Of a DNA stretch of 64,000 bases, positions 29,415 to 61,188 are shown piece after piece. Each line of letters opens with the position of its first letter. The stretch's first letter is position 1. The position numbers and the translations under genes were made by a program. Under the pieces are notes generated by a model. The model ran no database searches and was not told the DNA's origin. It saw nothing but the letters and a program-made list of their open reading frames with translations. The DNA comes from Saccostrea echinata (taxonomy: Eukaryota): contig NW_026889796.1 in NCBI RefSeq assembly GCF_033153115.1, forward strand, positions 8,928,001 to 8,992,000, given 5' to 3'.

Positions 29415-31279
29415 CTATTTCTTTTTGGTTTTATCGTCCTTTTTCTCTTCCTCCTGTGCCTCCTCCCCCTCCTCTGGTTCGGGTATGGGTGGGGGTGCGA
29501 TGTGAGGGAATACATTTTCCCCATGATATGCAAGTTTTCCCTCCAATTTTAGCTGGCTTTCTATCTGTATAAGTCTGTTGAACAGGGCGATTCTTTCACC
29601 CCTCACTGGGGCCCCAATTTTGAAAAATCTTGCATTCATTCCAACAGCCTTTTTTGAGAAAAAAAATTGCAAATTTTACAATAAAATATGGAAGAAATGG
29701 GTCATAAATTTATCCTCTTTGAAATTTATCCTATTCAAATGATCTGAAAATATTTGGATATACAGGTATTTATCAATATGGAATCATAGAGTAAACATAA
29801 TTGTAAGAAACTGCATACCATGTCTGCTAAGAAAGTGTCAGTTGTCTCTCCGTAGCATGTAGTCAGTACAATTTGATTCTCTGCATCTGTAATCAAATAA
29901 CACATGAACATAATTCAAAAGTTTTCAAAATGACTCATTTACATGAGAACATTTTTTTTCAATTAAATATGAATGGTTTGGCACACTGTAACTTTGGTAT
30001 TCTGCATTGTAGGAACTACTCACCTTCCATTTTCTTTGCACAATCGAGGACATCTGTCACTGTGTTTAATTGGTCCATCTTGAGGATGATGCCACTGGTT
30101 TTAAATTCTTCTGTGAGCTCCTCCTCCAGCAGTTTGGCTGGGCGGGGGTAGGTGTGGTTACCCATCACGTAACACTGATCACTGATCCTCTCGCACAGTC
30201 TCATCCAATGTTCCTTTTCCTGTCATATACAAACAATTAAATATGCATGGATTGCAGTTACAACAAGACACACATGGGTCACATTGCTCACTTGAGCACT
30301 TTGACTAGGAAAAAGCAGAAATCAATTCAGTATTGAAAAGTTTAAATATAAATATAAATGTGGTTCCGATATTTAATCTTTTATTGAGGCCTTGCCCTAC
30401 CTCCAGGGACATGATTGGAACACATCTGAAACTGCTCTACCTGAGGATGCTTCTGAATTAATAAGACTGGGTTTGACGTTCTTGAGATATATCACTTATA
30501 TACTTTTTTATAACTGTGAAAACTTTTATCCCCTGTTGTGGCCTCACCAAACCCCCAGGGGTCATGATTTGAACAAACCTGAATCTACACTACCTGAAGA
30601 TACTTCCATATTAATATGACTAACCATGGCTTTGCTGTTCTTGAGAAGAAAATTTTTCAAGATTTTTCCTATATATTCCTATGTAAAACTTTGATCCTCC
30701 ATTGTGGTCCCATACTACCACTGGGGTTATGATTTGAACAAACCTAAATTTACACTACCTGAGGATGTTTCCATATCAATATGACTACACAAGAATTTGC
30801 TGTCCTTGAAAAGTTTTTTCAAGATTTTTTCCTATATATTCCTAGGTAAAACTTTTATCCCCAATTGTGGCCCCACCCTACACCCAGGGGTCATGATTTG
30901 AACAAACCTAAATCTACAATACCCGAGGATGCTTCCATATTAATATGACTCAACAAGACTTTGCTATTCTTCAGAAGATTTTCAAAGATTTTTCCTATTT
31001 ATTCCTTCATAAAACTTTGATCGCCCATTGTGGCCCCACCCTACCCCCAGAGGTCATGATTTGAATAAACTTGAATCAACACTTAGGTTTCACATAAGTT
31101 TCAACTTTTCTGCCCAGTGGTTTTTGAGAAGAAGATTTTTAAAAGGTACCACCAATTTTTCACTGTTTCTTAATTATCTCCCCTAGGAAGAGGGAGTGAC
31201 CCTTCATTTGAACAAATTTGAATTCCCTTCACCAAAGGATACTTTGTGCCAAGTTCTGTTGAAATTGGCCTAGTGATTT

Positions 31280-48047: not shown

Positions 48048-51000
48048 TCACCATTTGGCATTCATGCCGATCTGCTTCACAACTTCATCAACAATTTGGT
48101 AAATAGCTTGACTGTCAGCAGACGACACTTCACTACATTCAAGTCTCCCTAAATTCAGAGTGGTAAGGAAAATTGAGATAAGAAAATATGGCCTGTTACA
48201 AAAAAGAAAAGAAAGAAGTAACTTTGTCGGTATATAAATTGTCCAAAATCATATACACATGTACATCCCATGTAAATTTGTTTATATGAGTTGTGATTTG
48301 CAAATAGACTGAACCATATACATGATTGTATAATCGAATTTTATTGTCCAAAATTGTTCAAAGAATGTCATCAGATCAAATATTGTTGCAAAGTGTCGGA
48401 GTTAACAATAGATTACCTGCTTCAAGAGATCGTTTGACACAGTCCGCCTCAAATCTCAGACCACCACTATAGGGAAAATTATATGGAACTGGACCATTGG
48501 CTATTTCATTGCTAATTTTACCAGATGGTAGAGTGGCTTCCAAAGGACACCAGAAATTTGCACCTATCTATATTTTTGCCATTTAGAATTTATAAAATAT
48601 ATAAAAAAAACTGATTCACTAATATGCATTTCACAGAAGTTTCATAAAAAATATCTATGAATATACCAATATCTTTCGAAGAAAATGATATTTTCCTGTC
48701 ATTTTTACATAAATAGAAAAAAATCATTTTCATAAATACAATGTTCTCTTGCTATCACCTCTATTTTTCCCTTGGTACCATATATTGTGGCTGTGTTGTT
48801 CTTTCCTGCTTGAAACAATGTGCTATAAACTAACACGGCTCGCCCACCATTCTTGTACGTTAATGTAATGCATCCATCTGTATCAACTCCTGCAAAACAG
48901 TTGCATTGATTTAAGAAATAACTGTCTAGGTTTGGGGGTATATTAGTATAAGGTACATTATACAAACATTACTACTGCGAGTCATATTACATTAATTCAG
49001 GAATGAGGGGCCAACCTTGATCCGACAGTGTTGCATCAGCTGTAATTTTTTCTGGGGTTTGATTGTTAAAAATCATGGTGGCCAACTGAATTGTGTAAAC
49101 ACCAATGTCATATAACCCCCCTCCTCCTAATTCAGGGTCTGTGATTCGATTTACTTGGCTAAGTGGAATACAAATCTGAGCTTGAACATGCTTGATGTCT
49201 CCCAAATTTCCAGCCCGCACCTCTTCTTTAATTTTGCGGTAAACTGGAAAGCATCTTGTCCATACTGCCTGCGGATTAATGAGAAAAATTACATTAAATT
49301 CCATTGGATCAATGATCACAAAAAGAACATAGTAAATAGAAAGAAACATAAATTGCATGACACTCGACGTTTGGGTTCAGAACTTATTTTAGTAGTATTT
49401 AAATTTTGCGGAAATGAAATTGACTACTTTGATATTTTCTGACCTAGGTCTTATGTACCTCCATGAAGAACTTTTTGCACTCTTTAGCCACCTGCTGGAC
49501 CTCCAGAATCTGAGACAGACTGGCTGCTACTGGTTTCTCACAGAGAACATTCTTCCCAGCTCTTAACATCTGCTTGGACAGTGCCACATGGTAAATGTGT
49601 ATCACACCAATATACACAATGTCTACAAATAATACATAAGTAGTATACATAAACAAATACATGCATTTTTACAAGTATATAAATGTTAAATGTATACCAG
49701 GTATATAAATGTACACTATATCAAAAATGTGAATTCGAAATTCAGCATATTATTATGCGTCGATCATCTTTTTTCATGACACCGGTACATCAAAGGTCCT
49801 GAAAGTCATCAGTTTTAGAACTGAACATAATCCAGGTGAACTGTATTCACCTATATCTAATTTTGTTTGTGGTTATTATCCTATAGTTTTCAACATATCA
49901 ATCTTAATGGACATTAAACATTTGAATTTTCAAAAAATATTTCAAGAGAATTTATGTCACGTACCATGACTGTAAATTGCAAGCCTTAGAAGAGTATATA
50001 AAAGATAACGACCAGGTCATATATATTCTCTGAAACCATTAAAATAGAGTATGCACAACTGGACCATGTATATCCATGTTTACATGTACATGATGTAGTT
50101 GATGAATTTCTATAGGTAAGATGTTTGTTTACAATACATATCCCTCAGGAAACATTCTCATGATTGCAGCACATGAATGTGGGAAAGAGATTACTAATTA
50201 TTCAATACTCAAGAATTGTAACTTCTTGAGAAGTTGTTACTCAAGAATTGTAACTTTGTAAGAACGAGCACAACACTTTAAATGACTTACAGCATTCACA
50301 TTTACCGACATCTGGATCATTGGCAAATATTTACATACACTGAATATTATTTCCTTTATTTCCCATAAAAACCATTGCTGTTAATCAGTCCATAAACAAC
50401 TCTTAGCAAGCCACCTGCATAGGTTTCTTAAGGAACGGCTGTTCTATCAATTATGCATACAATGACATATACATCTATAATACAATATTTAACATATTTA
50501 ATTTACTTTGCATGTTCTTTTTAAAAATATGAATATAAACAATAAAATGTCTTTCTTTCTTTGTTAGTGCAGGAATTAACATCGCAGCTATTGCAGAAAA
50601 AATTCACATAACCCGCTTACGCGAGTTATGTATTTTTTTCTGCAACAGCTGCGACATTAATTCCTGTACTAACAACCAAAGAAAGCATTTTATTGTTTAA
50701 CAAATTCACACTTACTGACATCTGGATCATTGGCAACACATTCACATATACCAACAACACATTCACACTTACTAACATGTGGATCAATGGCAACACATTC
50801 ACACTTACTGACATCTGGATCATTAGGAACACTTTCTCTCTTACTGACATCTGGATCATTGGCAACACATTAACACTTACCGACATCTGGATCATTGGCA
50901 ACCTCCTCATAAGATCCATATGCCGTCTTTATTCCAAATTTGTCTGCAAAAAGTTGTGCTCTTTCGAGTGATCTTGCCCCTATGCAAACAACCTAATTAA

Positions 51001-51372
51001 GACAATCCATGAAATTAAAAAAAAAATTATCTAATTACAGGGGTATAAACTATAAATATTATCTTTCTAATGCTTTTCATTATATAATAAAAAAGGAGAT
51101 TCAATTTACAGGCAAACCATGAATATTTAATGACTTTAAAATTATCGTATAAAATTTTGATATGGAAAGTGAGTTTTTTAATCAATTTTAATTTACACAA
51201 CTTTTTGAATACTGTACCCCATTGAAATGCACAGTCATTAAAAATTAGTTTTTATGCCAACCATGTGCTACAATTGTAATACCTCATGGACATTACTTGG
51301 AGGAGCCAAGAGTGCCGAAACAAAGTCATTAGAGATGGTACCCGCTCCACAAATTCCCCAATGAAGAGCCAT
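48048..51372 (-). CDS. dhdh: Dimeric dihydrodiol dehydrogenase (trans-1,2-dihydrobenzene-1,2-diol / D-xylose dehydrogenase, GFO/IDH/MocA family), paralog A, 333 aa
   Basis: Seven exons 51372-51283, 50992-50881, 49622-49459, 49268-49016, 48889-48759, 48567-48417, 48148-48048. Motifs WGICGAGTIS, AYGSYEE, DIVYIG..H, VLCEKP, AVWTRCFP, LGGGGLYDIGVY, FWCP. Confidence 0.95.
50295..50902 (-). repeat. 36-bp minisatellite of the dhdh-A exon 2 end plus 5' splice site, split by an inserted element
   Basis: Donor-like GT at 50880, 50844, 50808, 50772, 50751, 50715, and one more at 50305 beyond the insertion. Confidence 0.92.
50327..50700. mobile_element. Hairpin-terminated non-autonomous element (copy 2 of 2) inserted into the minisatellite
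   Basis: Homologous to 27343-27703; palindrome 50536-50699; minisatellite units on both sides. Confidence 0.82.
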
Positions 51373-54175: not shown

Positions 54176-56608
54176 TCACCATTTTACATTCATTCCAATT
54201 TTCTTCATAACTTCGTCAATAACACAGTAAAGAGCCTGACTGTCGGCAAAAGAAATTTCACTGCATTCAAGTCTCCCTAAGTAAAAAGTGATAAGATATA
54301 TNNNNNNNNNNNNNNNNNNNNNNNNNNNNNNNNNNNNNNNNNNNNNNNNNNNNNNNNNNNNNNNNNNNNNNNNNNNNNNNNNNNNNNNNNNNNNNNNNNN
54401 NNNNNNNNNNNNNNNNNNNNNNNNNNNNNNNNNNNNNNNNNNNNNNNNNNNNNNNNNNNNNNNNNNNNNNNNNNNNNNNNNNNNNNNNNNNNNNNNNNNN
54501 NNNNNNNNNNNNNNGAAGCAGGTGGACAAAACAGTTTGTGTTTGAAAGTACAACCCTTTCATCCTGTATATTTCCTCAAAAACAATCCAAGACTGAAATG
54601 TTAGTTCATTGTTTATGTCTTGTGTATGAATGTTAACAATGATGAAGAAAAGCCTTATGTCAATCAATGATTCATTCTTTTTGACTTTTCAAAGTTTTTA
54701 TCAGACTGGATTAAGGTACTTGTACATTTTAGATTTATATTAAATGATATAAACTGATTACCATTTTCTAGACATTCTTTGACACAATCAGCCTCAAAGC
54801 GCAGGCCTCCTGTATTTGGAAAATTATTTGGCACTGGACCACAGGGTATTTCATTGCTAACTTTTCCAGATGGCAGAGTGGCTTCCATTGGGCACCAGAA
54901 ATTCTCACCAATCTAGGGTTAAACATCCTATTTTATTTTTTAAAATCCTTATTATATATTCTATTTATACAACAATTCCATTGCCACAAAATTCATATAA
55001 GTGCAAGTTTGGCTTATGAAGGAATGACTGATCTTGGTTGTTTAAACCAATCACCTTCATGATCTTGTCGATATTTTACCTCTATTTTCCCTTTTGTGCC
55101 GTGTATTGTGGCGTTATTCTTTCCCCCGTCAATCAATGTGCTATAAAACAACACAGCCCTTCCGCCATTCTTATATGTTAATATAATACACCCATCTTCA
55201 TCAACTCCTGCAAAAAAGGAGGAAAAAAATGATCATTTACTAAGAGGCTTGCGATGACAATATGGCTTTCATGGTTAACTGATTTAAATGAAGAATAGAA
55301 TAGCCCATATACGCATCTGAGTCCAAGGTATATAACTATATATAATACTGAAAAGTGCTACAGCTTTTTTAAACATTATTATAAGCCGATTCGAAGACTG
55401 TTTTGTTTTAAATAATTGTTTCCTGGACGAGAATATACATGTTTCACAGATGATTATCGAGAAAGTTCGTCTCAGTTCCCAAAACATGCTACACATAACA
55501 TACCCCGATCAGACATCTTGGAATCGGCTGTGATTTTTTCTGGTTTTTCATTGTTGAAAATCATGTTAGACAATTGTATGGTGTCAAGTCCAATTTCATG
55601 CAACCCTCCTCCACCCAAATCAGGATTTGCGATGCGTTCGAATCCGATAATTGGAATACAGAATTGAGCCTGCACACACAATATTTCTCCCAAGTTTCCA
55701 GCTCGCACCTCTTCTTTGATCTTACGATAAACTGGAAAACATGGACTCCAAAGTCCCTGAAGTAGATTTTAAAAAAAAAACCTACTCAATATCTGCATTG
55801 AATTACATGTATGTGGAATTAATTTCTAAGCTGATTTTTATTATTATTATTATTTTTTTTTTTTTTTTTGCATATTTCTACAGATATTATTTTTCTTTTT
55901 AATTAAGGGTCCAAGTGGAATTCATAGCAGGATACGTCTAGTTTTTCAGAGTGAAAGATATATTCCAGACACACGAAAGCTAGCAAAGAGAGATACACAG
56001 GAAGAACTACTATTATGCAATTGTATAGGTTTCGTCAATGATGGCATGTATACATTATGTATGCAAAGAGACTTAACGGTTAGCTTTTAAATTCAGCTAG
56101 GCCATTTAGAACATTTACCATTAACTTCTTTAATAAAATGTACACAGGGTAGAACTATACCTCCATGAAAAACTTTTTGCATTCTCTGGCGACCTGCTGT
56201 ACCTCTAGCACCTGAGCCAGGTTAGCAGCCATTGGTCTCTCACACAGTACGTTCTTTCCTGCTCTAAGCATCTGCTTGGACAGTGCCACATGGCAAATGT
56301 GTATCACACCAATATACACAATGTCTATATAACGTAAAAAAGCATGTATGAAAAAATATTCTTAAATAATTGATATTTCAAATTCTTGCAAGAAATGTAA
56401 TATTGGCATGTTTCAAATTAATGTACATTTAGGGTTATATTACGTCATATTCCTATATAATGAAGACTCGGTGTTATGTCATCTTGAAAATCAATTGACT
56501 TTTGGTATTTTGAAAATGTGTTAATAATAGTATCACAGAGGTTTATGGATGCTTAGGGAACTCATTTCAGTGTATTTGAAGCTAAATCAAAAGCTTTATT
56601 AGTCTGTG

Positions 56609-56690
<82 letters not shown>

Positions 56691-58649
56691 AATAACTAAG
56701 TTTATCATTCCATTAGAAAATAAGACTCGCAACCTTTCTATCGTCAATTTTCCTTATTTTTGTAGCAATATACCCTTATCACCTGCATATGGAGTTTATG
56801 TCTCCCATTTGATTCGATACGCAAGAGCACGCTCTACGTACGTACAATTTCCAAAACGACACAAGCTATTGACAAACAAGTTGATGAAACAAGGAAATCA
56901 ACAGTCTTATTTGAAGTCAACATTTGGCAAGTTCTATGGGCGATACAATGACCTTGTCAGCAAATAAAATCTATCATTAAGCCGAATGCTGACTAACGAT
57001 TTTCACACTCATTGTTAGGCCATTATTTACACACTGAACTGTCTACGAATTTTTCCGTTTGCCCGATCATGACAAGGAGCACACAGCGGGTGTGACCGGT
57101 CGACAGGGGATGCTTACTCCTCCATGGCATTTTATCCCACCTCTGATGTTTTTTTAGAGGTCCGTGTTTGCTCTGCTCCCGATTTGTATTGGTTCAATGG
57201 ACTTTTGAGCTTGATTTATTATTCGTTATCTCCATATTTCATTCAACTGTTTTATGTTAAGACAACCTGACCACAAATATTTTAAACTTATTTTCAACAT
57301 ATGTTTAATACATAAATTTTATATATTTACGATATGATCGTTATACGTTTAAATCTTTGTTTTTGAACATATGTCAAATTTAAAAGACATTGTGTTAAAA
57401 TGAGCTGAAATATTCAAGTATAAGACTTAGAGTTTGACACATGTTTATGAACCTATGTTCCCAAATCTTTTTAGATTGATATTTATAAACATTTAACTTG
57501 ACCTTCAATTCTAGTTACCGCACAATCTCTCACTGAAGTCAAGAAGCTACCATACAGGGTTCAATATTGCTATGAGGTTGACAGATGAACACTTTCCCTT
57601 CTTGGTCATAGCAACAATGTTATTTTCTTCATCAAACGTGGTCAATATACAGTATGATATTCAACTTTAGGTCTATCAGATAAGTACAATTAAAGGTGTG
57701 TAAGATACTAGGTTTCTTGATTAAAAGGTGACTTAATTCCCAAAGCAGCAAGGAATTATTACTATAAATCATAGGAATGTTTTTACATGGTTACACTACA
57801 ATGTAGCAATAAATTCCGATTTTTTATGCTATCTGTGTTACAAGGCCCTAAAAATATTATTTGGCAGTATTGATTTTATGCCAAATGTATCCATAGTTAC
57901 CACTAACTTAAATATATATATCGGAAGTAGTAACAAGGTGTAATTTTTTGTGAGAATGGCTTTTTTGTCTTTATTAAGACTCAATAAAGATTCAGAGTAA
58001 CTGAAAATCTCAATTTTTTAAATTTTTCCAGCTATTACCATGTCGACAAAGACACATAGCAACTTAATTTAAGTGGTTACAGAGAATAGTTCTTAATTTT
58101 AATTGGTATTCACACTTACCAAAATCTGGATTGTTGCCAACATATTCACACTTACTAACATCTGGGTTATTGCCAACAAATTGACACATACCAACATCTG
58201 GATTATTGCCAACATATTCACACTTGCCAACATCCGGATCATTGCCAACACATTCACACTTACCAACATCTGGATTATTGCCAACACATTCACACTTGCC
58301 AACATCTGGATTATTGCCAACACATTCACACTTGCCAACATCCGGATCATTGCCAACACATTCACACTTGCCAACATCCGGATCATTGCCAACACATTCA
58401 CACTTGCCAACATCCGGATCATTGCCAACACATTCACACTTACCAACATCTGGATTATTGCCAACATCCTCATACGATCCATAAGCTGCGTTTATTCCAA
58501 ACTTGTCTGCGAAACTTTTTGCTCTGTCCAGTGACCTGCTTCCAATGCAAACAACCTTTAAAACACATAGATGATTCTAGGACACCTGTAGGTTCTACAT
58601 ATCAGTGACATAGCTACCACTACTCAAAGGTAAAGGAAACTGCCTCATC

Positions 58650-58684
<35 letters not shown>

Positions 58685-59710
58685 CACATTGGCTTGGCAA
58701 AAGCACAAATCAGTTCAGTATTGAAAAGATAACCGGGGGAGGGGGGGGGGTTGAATTTTAAACTACCTGATGATGCTTCCATGTCAATATAACAAATGGC
58801 TTTGTTGTACTTGAGATTTAAAAAGAAAAATTCCCATATATTCCTTTGTAAAAATTTGATCCCCCATTGTGGCTCCTCCCTATCCCAGGGGTCATCATTT
58901 GAACAAACTTGAATCTACACTACCTGAGGATGCTTCCATATCAATATGACTAAACATAGCTTTTCTGTTCTTGAGAAGAAATATTTTTTCTATATGTTCT
59001 TATGTAAAATTTTTGATCCCGCATTGTGGCCCGACCCTATCCCCGGGGGTCATCATTTGAACAAAGTTGAATCTACACTACCTGAGGATGCTTCCATAAC
59101 AAAATGATTAATCATGGCTTTGCAGTTCTTCATATATTTCTATTTAAGACTTCGATCCTCCATTGTGGCCCCACCCTACCCCCAGGGGTCATGATTTAAA
59201 CAAAATAGAATCTACCCAACATGCGGATGCTTCCGTATAAATATGACACATCATGGCTTTGCTATTCTTGAGAAGAAGATTTTTAAAGGTTTTTCCTATA
59301 TATTTCTATGTAAAACTTTGATCCTCCATTGTGGCCCCGCCCTACCCCCGGGGGGTTATGATTTGAACAAACTTGAATTTACACTACCTGAGGATGCTTC
59401 CATATAAATATGACTCATCATGACTTTGCTGTTCTTGAGAAGATTTTTAAAGGTTTTTCCTATATATTTCTATGTAAAACTCTGATCCTCCATTGTGGCC
59501 CCGCCCTACCCCCGGGGGTCATGATTTGAACAAACTTGAATTTACACTACCTGAAGATGCTTCCACATGAGTTTCATCTTTCCTGGCCCTGTGGTTCTTG
59601 AGAAGAAGATTTTTAAAAGATGCTATTAATTTTTCACTTATTCTTTATTATCTCCCCTTGAAAGAGGGCGTGGCCCTTCATTTGAACAAACTTAAATCCC
59701 CTTCACCCAC

Positions 59711-59742
<32 letters not shown>

Positions 59743-59825
59743 GGCAGTAGTTTTGGAGAAGAAGATGAAATTGTGAAAAGTTTACAACGACAACAACAAC
59801 ACCGACGACGATGACAACGACGACA

Positions 59826-59867
<42 letters not shown>

Positions 59868-61188
59868 TGGCTCAGGTGAGCTAAAAATCACACACACGCA
59901 CACACACACCCTCACACACACACACACCCTCACACACACACTTTTTTATTTATATCAAACTTATGAACTACATGAACATATTATAATTACGAATCTTAAT
60001 TTTTCCCAATTTTATTTGGAGTACAAATACATTTCAGCGAGCTATAGGGCAAATCTAACCTTATTTAATTTACGTGTACAAATAACAATAGTTTTAAAGG
60101 TGCATGTCGTTATTTCTTCCGTAATTCATATGTTAATATATTTTGGTAACCTATTTAAATGTAAACATTTTTTTTTCTACAGATGCGTCTATTCCGGACT
60201 TATCAATGAAATACTCATAAAGAAGACATGTCTAATTGTTCAAAGGAACGGTAGCTAATACATAGTGTAATTAAGAAATGTTAATTCTGAACATTTTTTA
60301 AACCCAAAAATGGGTCCAAAAATTTGTCTTTTTTAAAGAATTGAGATCCAAGTCTAAAAAAAAATCAGCTTTAGGAGCATTCTATTGAGTATGCTGAGGA
60401 GTCAGTCATTTTTACGGAAAGCCTCGTGTTTTATTCATCAAAACTATCGTAATATTTTTTACCCACTAACACCCTATTTTCTACTTACATTTTGAGTCTT
60501 TGTTGTTCTGATAATCTTCTCAAAAATATCAAGAAGAATTTAATTCCAGATCATAAGTTTTCAGAGATAGAAATTTTCATTCATCGTCTATGAAAAATCC
60601 CAAGAAGTTTGGTTTCCCGCCATATTTTCAATGCTTTATATCTCAAAAATATGCTCAAATACTCATATTTTTCTTATTTTGTTTCACGTAATGAAAGCAT
60701 CGAATTAAAGTTCCAAAATTGAAAAGTTAAATGCAAGTTATCTCAGCAGAATACATTCTTAATGATATTTTTTTTCTAATTCTTATTTAAGCATAATTGT
60801 TTGCTGTAGTAGGTTTGTAAAATTATGCTATTCTATTTATCATATATTTCATCGTTTTTCTTCATTGTGTATCATAATAAAAATTGTTTTGTTGGAGGGG
60901 TGGGGGGTTAGAAAATTGTTTTGTTGGGGAGAAGGGGACTTCGTTCACACGAACTCCTTTCTTCAGGACTTCAGACCCTTGCTGCAAATTTTGCCCAACT
61001 TAAATGGGGGGGGGGGGGCTATAACACTGGATATTGAAGTGGTTTCTTCATCATATCATCATAATTTTCCATAAGCCATAAATTGAAATACTTGGTACCT
61101 CATGGACATTACTTGGTGGTGCCAAGAGCGCAGAGACAAAATCATTAGAAATGTGTCCGGCACCACATATTCCCCAACGAAGAACCAT
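54176..61188 (-). CDS. dhdh: Dihydrodiol dehydrogenase-like paralog B, 332 aa, intact frame but altered active-site motifs
   Basis: Seven exons 61188-61099, 58555-58444, 56324-56161, 55756-55504, 55207-55080, 54912-54762, 54276-54176, phases matching paralog A. Motifs read CERP, GLWSPCFP, GGGGLHEIGLD. Confidence 0.92.
54302..54514. other. Assembly gap (run of N) in the last intron of dhdh-B
   Basis: Continuous n bases. Confidence 0.99.
56612..56687. repeat. (TA)n microsatellite
   Basis: About 38 perfect TA units. Confidence 0.98.
56715..57241 (+). mobile_element. 3' fragment of the Naiad-like Penelope element in a dhdh-B intron
   Basis: IVNFPYFCSNIPLSPAYGVYVSHLIRYARA...KFYGRY plus a 3' UTR matching 14500-14718. 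Confidence 0.88.
58107..58466 (-). repeat. 36-bp minisatellite (10 units) of the dhdh-B exon 2 end plus 5' splice site
   Basis: Donor positions 58443, 58407, 58371, 58335, 58299, 58263, 58227, 58191, 58155, 58119, exactly 36 nt apart; five GT and five GC. Confidence 0.95.
58650..59886. mobile_element. Non-autonomous Helentron/HINE-type element with Cg170-like tandem core, in dhdh-B intron 1
   Basis: AACAAGAGGCCCATGGGCCACATCGCTCACCTGAG start, ~5 core repeats, (ACA/ACG)n microsatellite, end GCTCACTTGAGCCTTTGGCTCAGGTGAGCTAAAAA; followed by (CA)n at 59889-59941. Confidence 0.92.

Follow-up and report, generated by a model that had tools for sequence, protein, structure and literature searches.

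A minisatellite across an exon-intron junction of a dihydrodiol dehydrogenase-like gene in the oyster Saccostrea echinata

Analysis of a 64,000-nt stretch of the Saccostrea echinata genome (referred to here as the window) leads us to conclude, with considerable confidence, that the array of repeats where exon 2 of dhdh-A meets intron 2 is an exon/intron-junction ('mirage') minisatellite. Assembled RNA uses its first splice donor, while the donors repeated further along are likely silent pseudo-donors and an in-frame TAA in the first unit is likely neutral. The locus itself is ordinary, and its value lies in the combination of a paralog pair with a common junction array and a unit isolated by a transposon, which together form a natural test of exchange between intronic copies and an exon. 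A more interesting lead than this single array is a genome-wide excess of similar arrays that is confined to splice donors.

The array and the donor used in RNA

The gene dhdh-A is a seven-exon DHDH-like gene on the minus strand, its exons having been placed by protein match (Table 1). The repeated unit of 36 nt consists of 22 nt of exon end followed by 14 nt of intron start, and it is reiterated head to tail into intron 2. Unit 1 (50902-50867) spans the real exon-intron boundary, where exon 2 ends at 50881 (GTC G/GTAAGT), and its exonic part is the last 22 nt of exon 2. The array, which had been described from the letters of the DNA alone in what we call the sequence-only reading, is real: TRF detects it with a period of 36, and a pattern search returned 31 matches compared to a mean of 11.3 in shuffled sequence, with none of 100 shuffles scoring as high. 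Donor-like GT dinucleotides are found on the minus strand at 50880, 50844, 50808, 50772, 50751, 50715 and 50305 (offsets of 0, 36, 72, 108, 129, 165 and 575), and the spacings between 50880 and 50715, given in that reading as 36, 36, 36, 21 and 36 and all multiples of 3, were recovered exactly. Internally, the unit is built as 18+18, with GTTG(G) in both halves. That the unit is a dispersed satellite family was ruled out, since a motif shared by the units is matched exactly at 8 places across the 923-Mb genome and every one of these is in gene A or gene B.

Table 1. Positions of the features discussed, numbered from the first letter of the window.
Feature	Position	Strand	Basis or remark
dhdh-A coding exon 1 (XP_061194135.1)	51283..51372	(-)	protein match and spliced joint to exon 2, run X1
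dhdh-A exon 2	50881..50992	(-)	protein match and RNA contigs; phase-1 donor used in RNA
In-frame TAA, intron part of unit 1	50870..50872	(-)	sequence; one assembly
36-nt minisatellite (units 1-4, 21-nt half unit, unit 6)	50701..50902	(-)	TRF and pattern search
374-bp non-coding dispersed element inside array	50327..50700	(-)	genome copies with shared ends
Unit 7, distal end of array	50292..50326	(-)	exonic part identical to end of exon 2; donor-like site 50305
dhdh-A exon 3	49459..49622	(-)	protein match; RNA contigs join it to 50881
Gene B	54179-61188		within window
Paralog B homologous 10-unit array, exon 2/intron 2 junction	58106..58465	(-)	TRF; 5 of 9 later donors are GC

The copy at 50305 belongs to the array as its unit 7, because removing the 374 bases of an inserted element turns the 410-nt spacing into 36 and thereby restores both the register and the unit exactly; an origin of this copy as a solitary or separate duplication is ruled out on the same grounds. 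Searches with the two halves of the element gave 863 and 1817 candidates (40 scored for each), and full-length copies with the same ends and 87-94% identity were present at 20 of 22 fetched loci, some copies having been fetched twice. The element has a 164-nt palindrome at one end. It is dispersed and has sharp ends, no visible target-site duplication and no terminal inverted repeats, as do non-autonomous Helitron/Helentron-like elements, to which it may be related. The hundreds of candidate copies of this element are accompanied by its frequent appearance in transcript contigs.

Contigs from six of ten candidate sequencing runs were compared with the gene; none of the ten is on record as RNA, and the runs were taken as RNA because their contigs are spliced. 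The joint 49622-50881, which connects exon 3 to the first donor, was found in two of the four runs of the first set (depth 43 and 30), and runs X2 and X6 were without coverage of exon 2. In a second comparison, pieces of exon 2 stop at 50881 in all four runs examined (from 2 samples), exon 3 appears as a loose end in three of the four, and the RefSeq protein P0001 also uses the first donor. No joint to a later donor of gene A was present in the assembled contigs, which derive from 2 samples and drop rare forms. One 66-nt contig of depth 3.7 lies inside the array, but with 10 differences, of which both listed ones are B-type, suggesting that it probably originates from the intron of gene B. Only the first donor appears in assembled RNA of gene A, with the qualification that contigs lose rare isoforms and that NMD would hide them. 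At the protein level, no extended form was found in the protein clusters of A or B, and the peptide encoded by the repeat of B matched none of 2948 candidate proteins, which is a weak indication of its absence.

The GT is retained at all six later sites of gene A. When scored against the U1 consensus, these later donors match at 5-7 of 11 positions compared to 8 of 11 for the first donor. A donor-weakening variant has spread within the array, a -1 G>A change that is present in four of the five full intronic units and falls at a CpG.

On the basis of these properties, the dhdh-A array belongs to the known exon/intron-boundary ('mirage', F7-type) minisatellites: it lies at a real boundary, the donor is reiterated, the mRNA (as contigs) uses the authentic site, and the units are concerted. 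In lancelets, splicing is unaffected by the 'mirage' minisatellites of Adh3, troponin C, the globins BflGb6/BflGb9 and PGBD5, whose copies undergo concerted evolution (PMC3087553; PMC3902484). The oyster array is like these in having tandem copies across an exon-intron boundary, a unit size within the Adh3 range (10-72 bp), splice signals in many copies, normal splicing, concerted evolution in a cluster and several loci per genome. It differs in being common to two tandem paralogs (dS 0.88) and re-matched to the exon of each, and in being split by a transposon; moreover, the lancelet arrays described there cover both kinds of boundary, whereas the excess in the oyster genome is at donors only.

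A second comparison is provided by the 37-bp VNTR in IVS7 of human F7 and its kin (CBS IVS13, 6-16 intron 2, LMNB2 and PDGF), where the first unit likewise lies across the exon end and donor and the donor is repeated in the intron (PMC1557585). The F7 unit includes 4 exon bases and its pseudo-sites are identical, whereas the oyster unit includes 22 exon bases, keeps the frame, and has weakened later donors in gene A. The most upstream site alone is used in F7, LMNB2 and PDGF, while two pseudo-sites are used in CBS and 6-16 (PMC1557585), a use that was not seen in the oyster A contigs. A literature search in which subscription papers were mostly outside scope turned up no description of arrays of this kind in any mollusc, oysters included.

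Paralogs and the origin of the units

Saccostrea echinata contains three tandem DHDH-like paralogs (A, B and C), the last of which is located outside the window. Exon 4 of dhdh-A is 100% identical to RefSeq protein P0001, which aligns with DHDH (dimeric dihydrodiol dehydrogenase; PDB 2o48; Gfo/Idh/MocA family, Pfam PF01408) over residues 1-329 (E 4.5e-64). The oyster cluster differs from this reference in its three tandem paralogs and in the alteration of B at three positions, with R97, E176 and D180 in place of K97, D176 and Y180; gene A keeps all three residues, as does paralog C, which is without an array. We take K97, D176 and Y180 to be the catalytic residues of DHDH; a literature search on this point found no relevant paper. 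The frame of gene B is intact despite these replacements (dN 0.14 versus dS 0.88 to A), and one RefSeq isoform of B, of 247 aa, begins in exon 3. The synonymous divergence between A and B (pS 0.52, dS 0.88) indicates old paralogs, and a protein tree gave no clear branching order for the three paralogs and for the genes of Ostrea and Crassostrea. In addition, contigs with ~11 differences on exon 3 of A suggest that some paralog is expressed.

The units of the two arrays sort by gene. All nine intronic B units are nearer to the exon end of B than to that of A, and all five full intronic A units are nearer to the exon of A, in agreement with the earlier description of the A units as copies of their own exon end. 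The separation was reached by 1 of 8008 label permutations, and a tree of the units (bootstrap 81 for the B clade and 40 for A) shows that units of A and B do not intermix. This separation resides entirely in the 22 exonic bases, where the mean distance is 4.43 between genes and 2.20 and 1.87 within them; for the 14 intronic bases it is 2.23 between genes and 2.33 and 1.76 within. The A and B units have their period, register and intron tail in common, and among 15 weakly constrained sites just 1-2 distinguish them, whereas the synonymous difference across the whole paralogs is 0.52 (P 0.0003-0.002).

The sequence-only reading had proposed that the arrays either expanded independently or keep homogenising with their own exon. 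The second proposal is strengthened by the sorting of units by gene, and the first loses ground, as the units are far closer than expected from a dS of 0.88. A single origin followed by homogenisation within each gene is likelier than independent expansion because unit similarity is far above that expected from this divergence and the period and register are shared. Under this model, a duplication across the donor would have arisen once by slippage or unequal crossover, probably aided by the short GTTG(G) repeats that the unit contains. Either gene duplication or ectopic conversion at a later time would have brought the array to both A and B. Within each gene, turnover would then have held the copies close to the one in the exon, which is under constraint, and the array would be tolerated because the most upstream donor wins and, in gene A, the later donors are also poorer U1 matches.

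It is unlikely, in our view, that the two arrays were instead born independently from their own exons at a junction prone to duplication. Such a history would fit the match of the units to their own exon, the frequency of donor arrays in this genome, the internal repeat structure described above, and the heptamer TGAATAC, which is common to the last unit of B and to the intron start of C, a paralog that has no array and yet has an intron start resembling array letters. It retains some probability because array-free C keeps this part of the intron start, so that those sites may be constrained. On the other hand, the period, register and junction letters are the same in A and B, whereas other arrays range from ~15 to 52 nt, and the similarity of the units is hard to reconcile with the age of the paralogs. 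The low divergence of exon 3 between A and C, discussed next, also counts against independent origin in hinting that conversion occurs in the cluster.

Exon 3 of A (window 49459-49622) and that of C (contig C47, about 9006279-9006443) have a dS of 0.27, compared to 0.71 for the whole genes, which, judged from the sequences, is a hint of gene conversion within the cluster.

The homologous array of paralog B has its own pattern of variation. GC replaces GT (+2 T>C) at five of its nine later donors, two of the nine equal the first donor of B in U1 matches, and the reading frame is open through the array. Four of the nine intronic B units hold GAT (Asp) where the exon of B has AAT, and this codon, which is linked to CCG, is the one found in gene A and in an Ostrea protein.

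Donor arrays across the genome

The pattern of three GGTAAGT motifs at 15-45 nt spacing has 1533 matches genome-wide versus 247 for its reversed control. Taken singly, the motif is less frequent than the reversed one (90,586 versus 146,474), so that the excess comes to ~10-fold per motif occurrence. For periods of 35-37 the counts are 151 versus 6, and AGGTGAG matches number 977 versus 445 (a comparison made without a single-site baseline). The acceptor motif TTTCAGG shows no excess (236 versus 281). These genome-wide counts are of matches rather than of arrays, and they come from three motifs with one reversed control each. A hand count of listings for contig C1 gave 18 donor arrays and 5 control arrays (P 0.0001). 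Extrapolation from the 27 arrays that were sampled within the first 100 of the 1533 matches suggests ~400 strict donor arrays genome-wide, and the class is larger than the strict count because the array of gene A itself would fail the strict pattern.

The sampled arrays carry marks of exon ends. In 23 of 25 cases, GC content ahead of the first donor exceeds that beyond the array (0.43 versus 0.32; two arrays left out), and the frame abutting the first donor matches Pfam (E up to 0.01) in 8 of 26, of which 3 are above the curated cut-off. These matches are to importin-beta, cadherin, MTMR GRAM, collagen, RFC lid, DGK-delta, ligand-gated channel and ELP1, and frames on the mirror side gave 0 of 20, six more being too short to scan. 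Judged by these features, many donor arrays in this genome start at predicted coding exon ends. Very long donor arrays also occur in this genome, with ~36 units at contig C2:15738600-15743200 and >60 units at contig C4:3196024-3198435.

Plain neutrality gives no explanation for the ~10-fold genome-wide excess, which may reflect survival beside a constrained copy, instability of 5' splice sites or extra U1 sites. A further reading is that, throughout the genome, such arrays are slightly advantageous or form preferentially, for example as extra landing sites for U1 snRNP or because the DNA of transcribed 5' splice sites is unstable, with dhdh-A as one instance. The triple-motif, period and AGGTGAG counts, together with the behaviour of the acceptor motif, point in this direction. 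Nevertheless, we consider this reading of dhdh-A doubtful, given that the counts are of matches for few motifs and single controls, that survival beside a constrained exon copy and selective loss of acceptor duplications could yield much of the pattern without function, and that the later donors in dhdh-A are weakened rather than kept.

Within the junction-minisatellite reading of dhdh-A that we prefer, some observations run against strict neutrality. All spacings of the A array up to unit 6 keep the frame, which could reflect selection, as could the spread of donor-weakening variants in the A and B arrays, though the change in A is at a CpG. Frame preservation as a sign of function was nonetheless rejected, because the period is also divisible by 3 in 11 of 25 other arrays (P 0.18, with the periods of ~4 sampled arrays miscalled by the script).

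If an annotation-based count upholds the donor-only excess, it would turn what is now lancelet and human anecdote into a measurable process, and it would offer, in an invertebrate, hundreds of naturally occurring cases in which to test how the first donor is selected. A broader and tentative proposal, which we hold to be possible but far from established, is that oyster 5' splice sites are specific sites of minisatellite birth or retention, that the arrays co-evolve with the coding exon, and that intronic copies can rewrite the protein and move between tandem paralogs by conversion; the Asp-codon units of B would then represent an exchange in progress.

The in-frame stop in unit 1

Unit 1 of the A array reads GGT AAG TGT TAA, and the in-frame stop reported earlier at 50872-50870 is present in the assembly sequence, in a stretch that no RNA contig covers. 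It arises from a G>T change at +9, a position at which the other five full A units have G, and neither paralog B nor paralog C has it. Across the six full A units there are 14 departures from the majority sequence, and of the 42 changes that the unit's intron part allows, 4 create a stop; a metagenome scan for the array or the TAA gave 0 matches. Considered together with its confinement to one unit, the TAA is likely a neutral substitution.

The stop lies just after exon 2 of 7 and upstream of every later donor, so the earlier statement that use of any later A donor would include it holds as a matter of logic. A rare slip to such a donor would therefore be expected to produce a target for NMD, but as a side effect and not as a means of control. 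The proposed functional contrast between a closed array in A and an open one in B is not supported by the data, in which A contigs show the first donor alone and the TAA is in a single unit. Regulated unproductive splicing, in which later A donors would send transcripts to NMD via the TAA while B makes extended proteins, is very improbable: it would suit the position of the stop, the open frame through the array of B and the retention by A, and loss by B, of the putative catalytic residues, but joints to later donors are absent from the A contigs (in which rare forms are dropped), no extended protein was found in the clusters or among the 2948 candidates, the TAA is confined to one unit, a transposon lies inside the array, C keeps K97, D176 and Y180 without having an array, and early stops are ordinary in the donor arrays of this genome, 14 of 25 others having one before the second donor (3 of the 8 with a Pfam-supported frame; for those without such support the longest open frame was chosen).

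Other features of the A and B genes were recorded in the same analysis. Unspliced contigs extend across intron 5 of gene A (window 48540-48788, depth 19-28) and across part of its intron 2 (window 49594-50507, depth ~8), and these may represent intron retention, pre-mRNA or DNA. A related tandem repeat of 158-164 nt forms two arrays, at window 30519-31083 and 58836-59565, the second of which is inside intron 1 of gene B, and a common oyster element probably has this repeat as its core.
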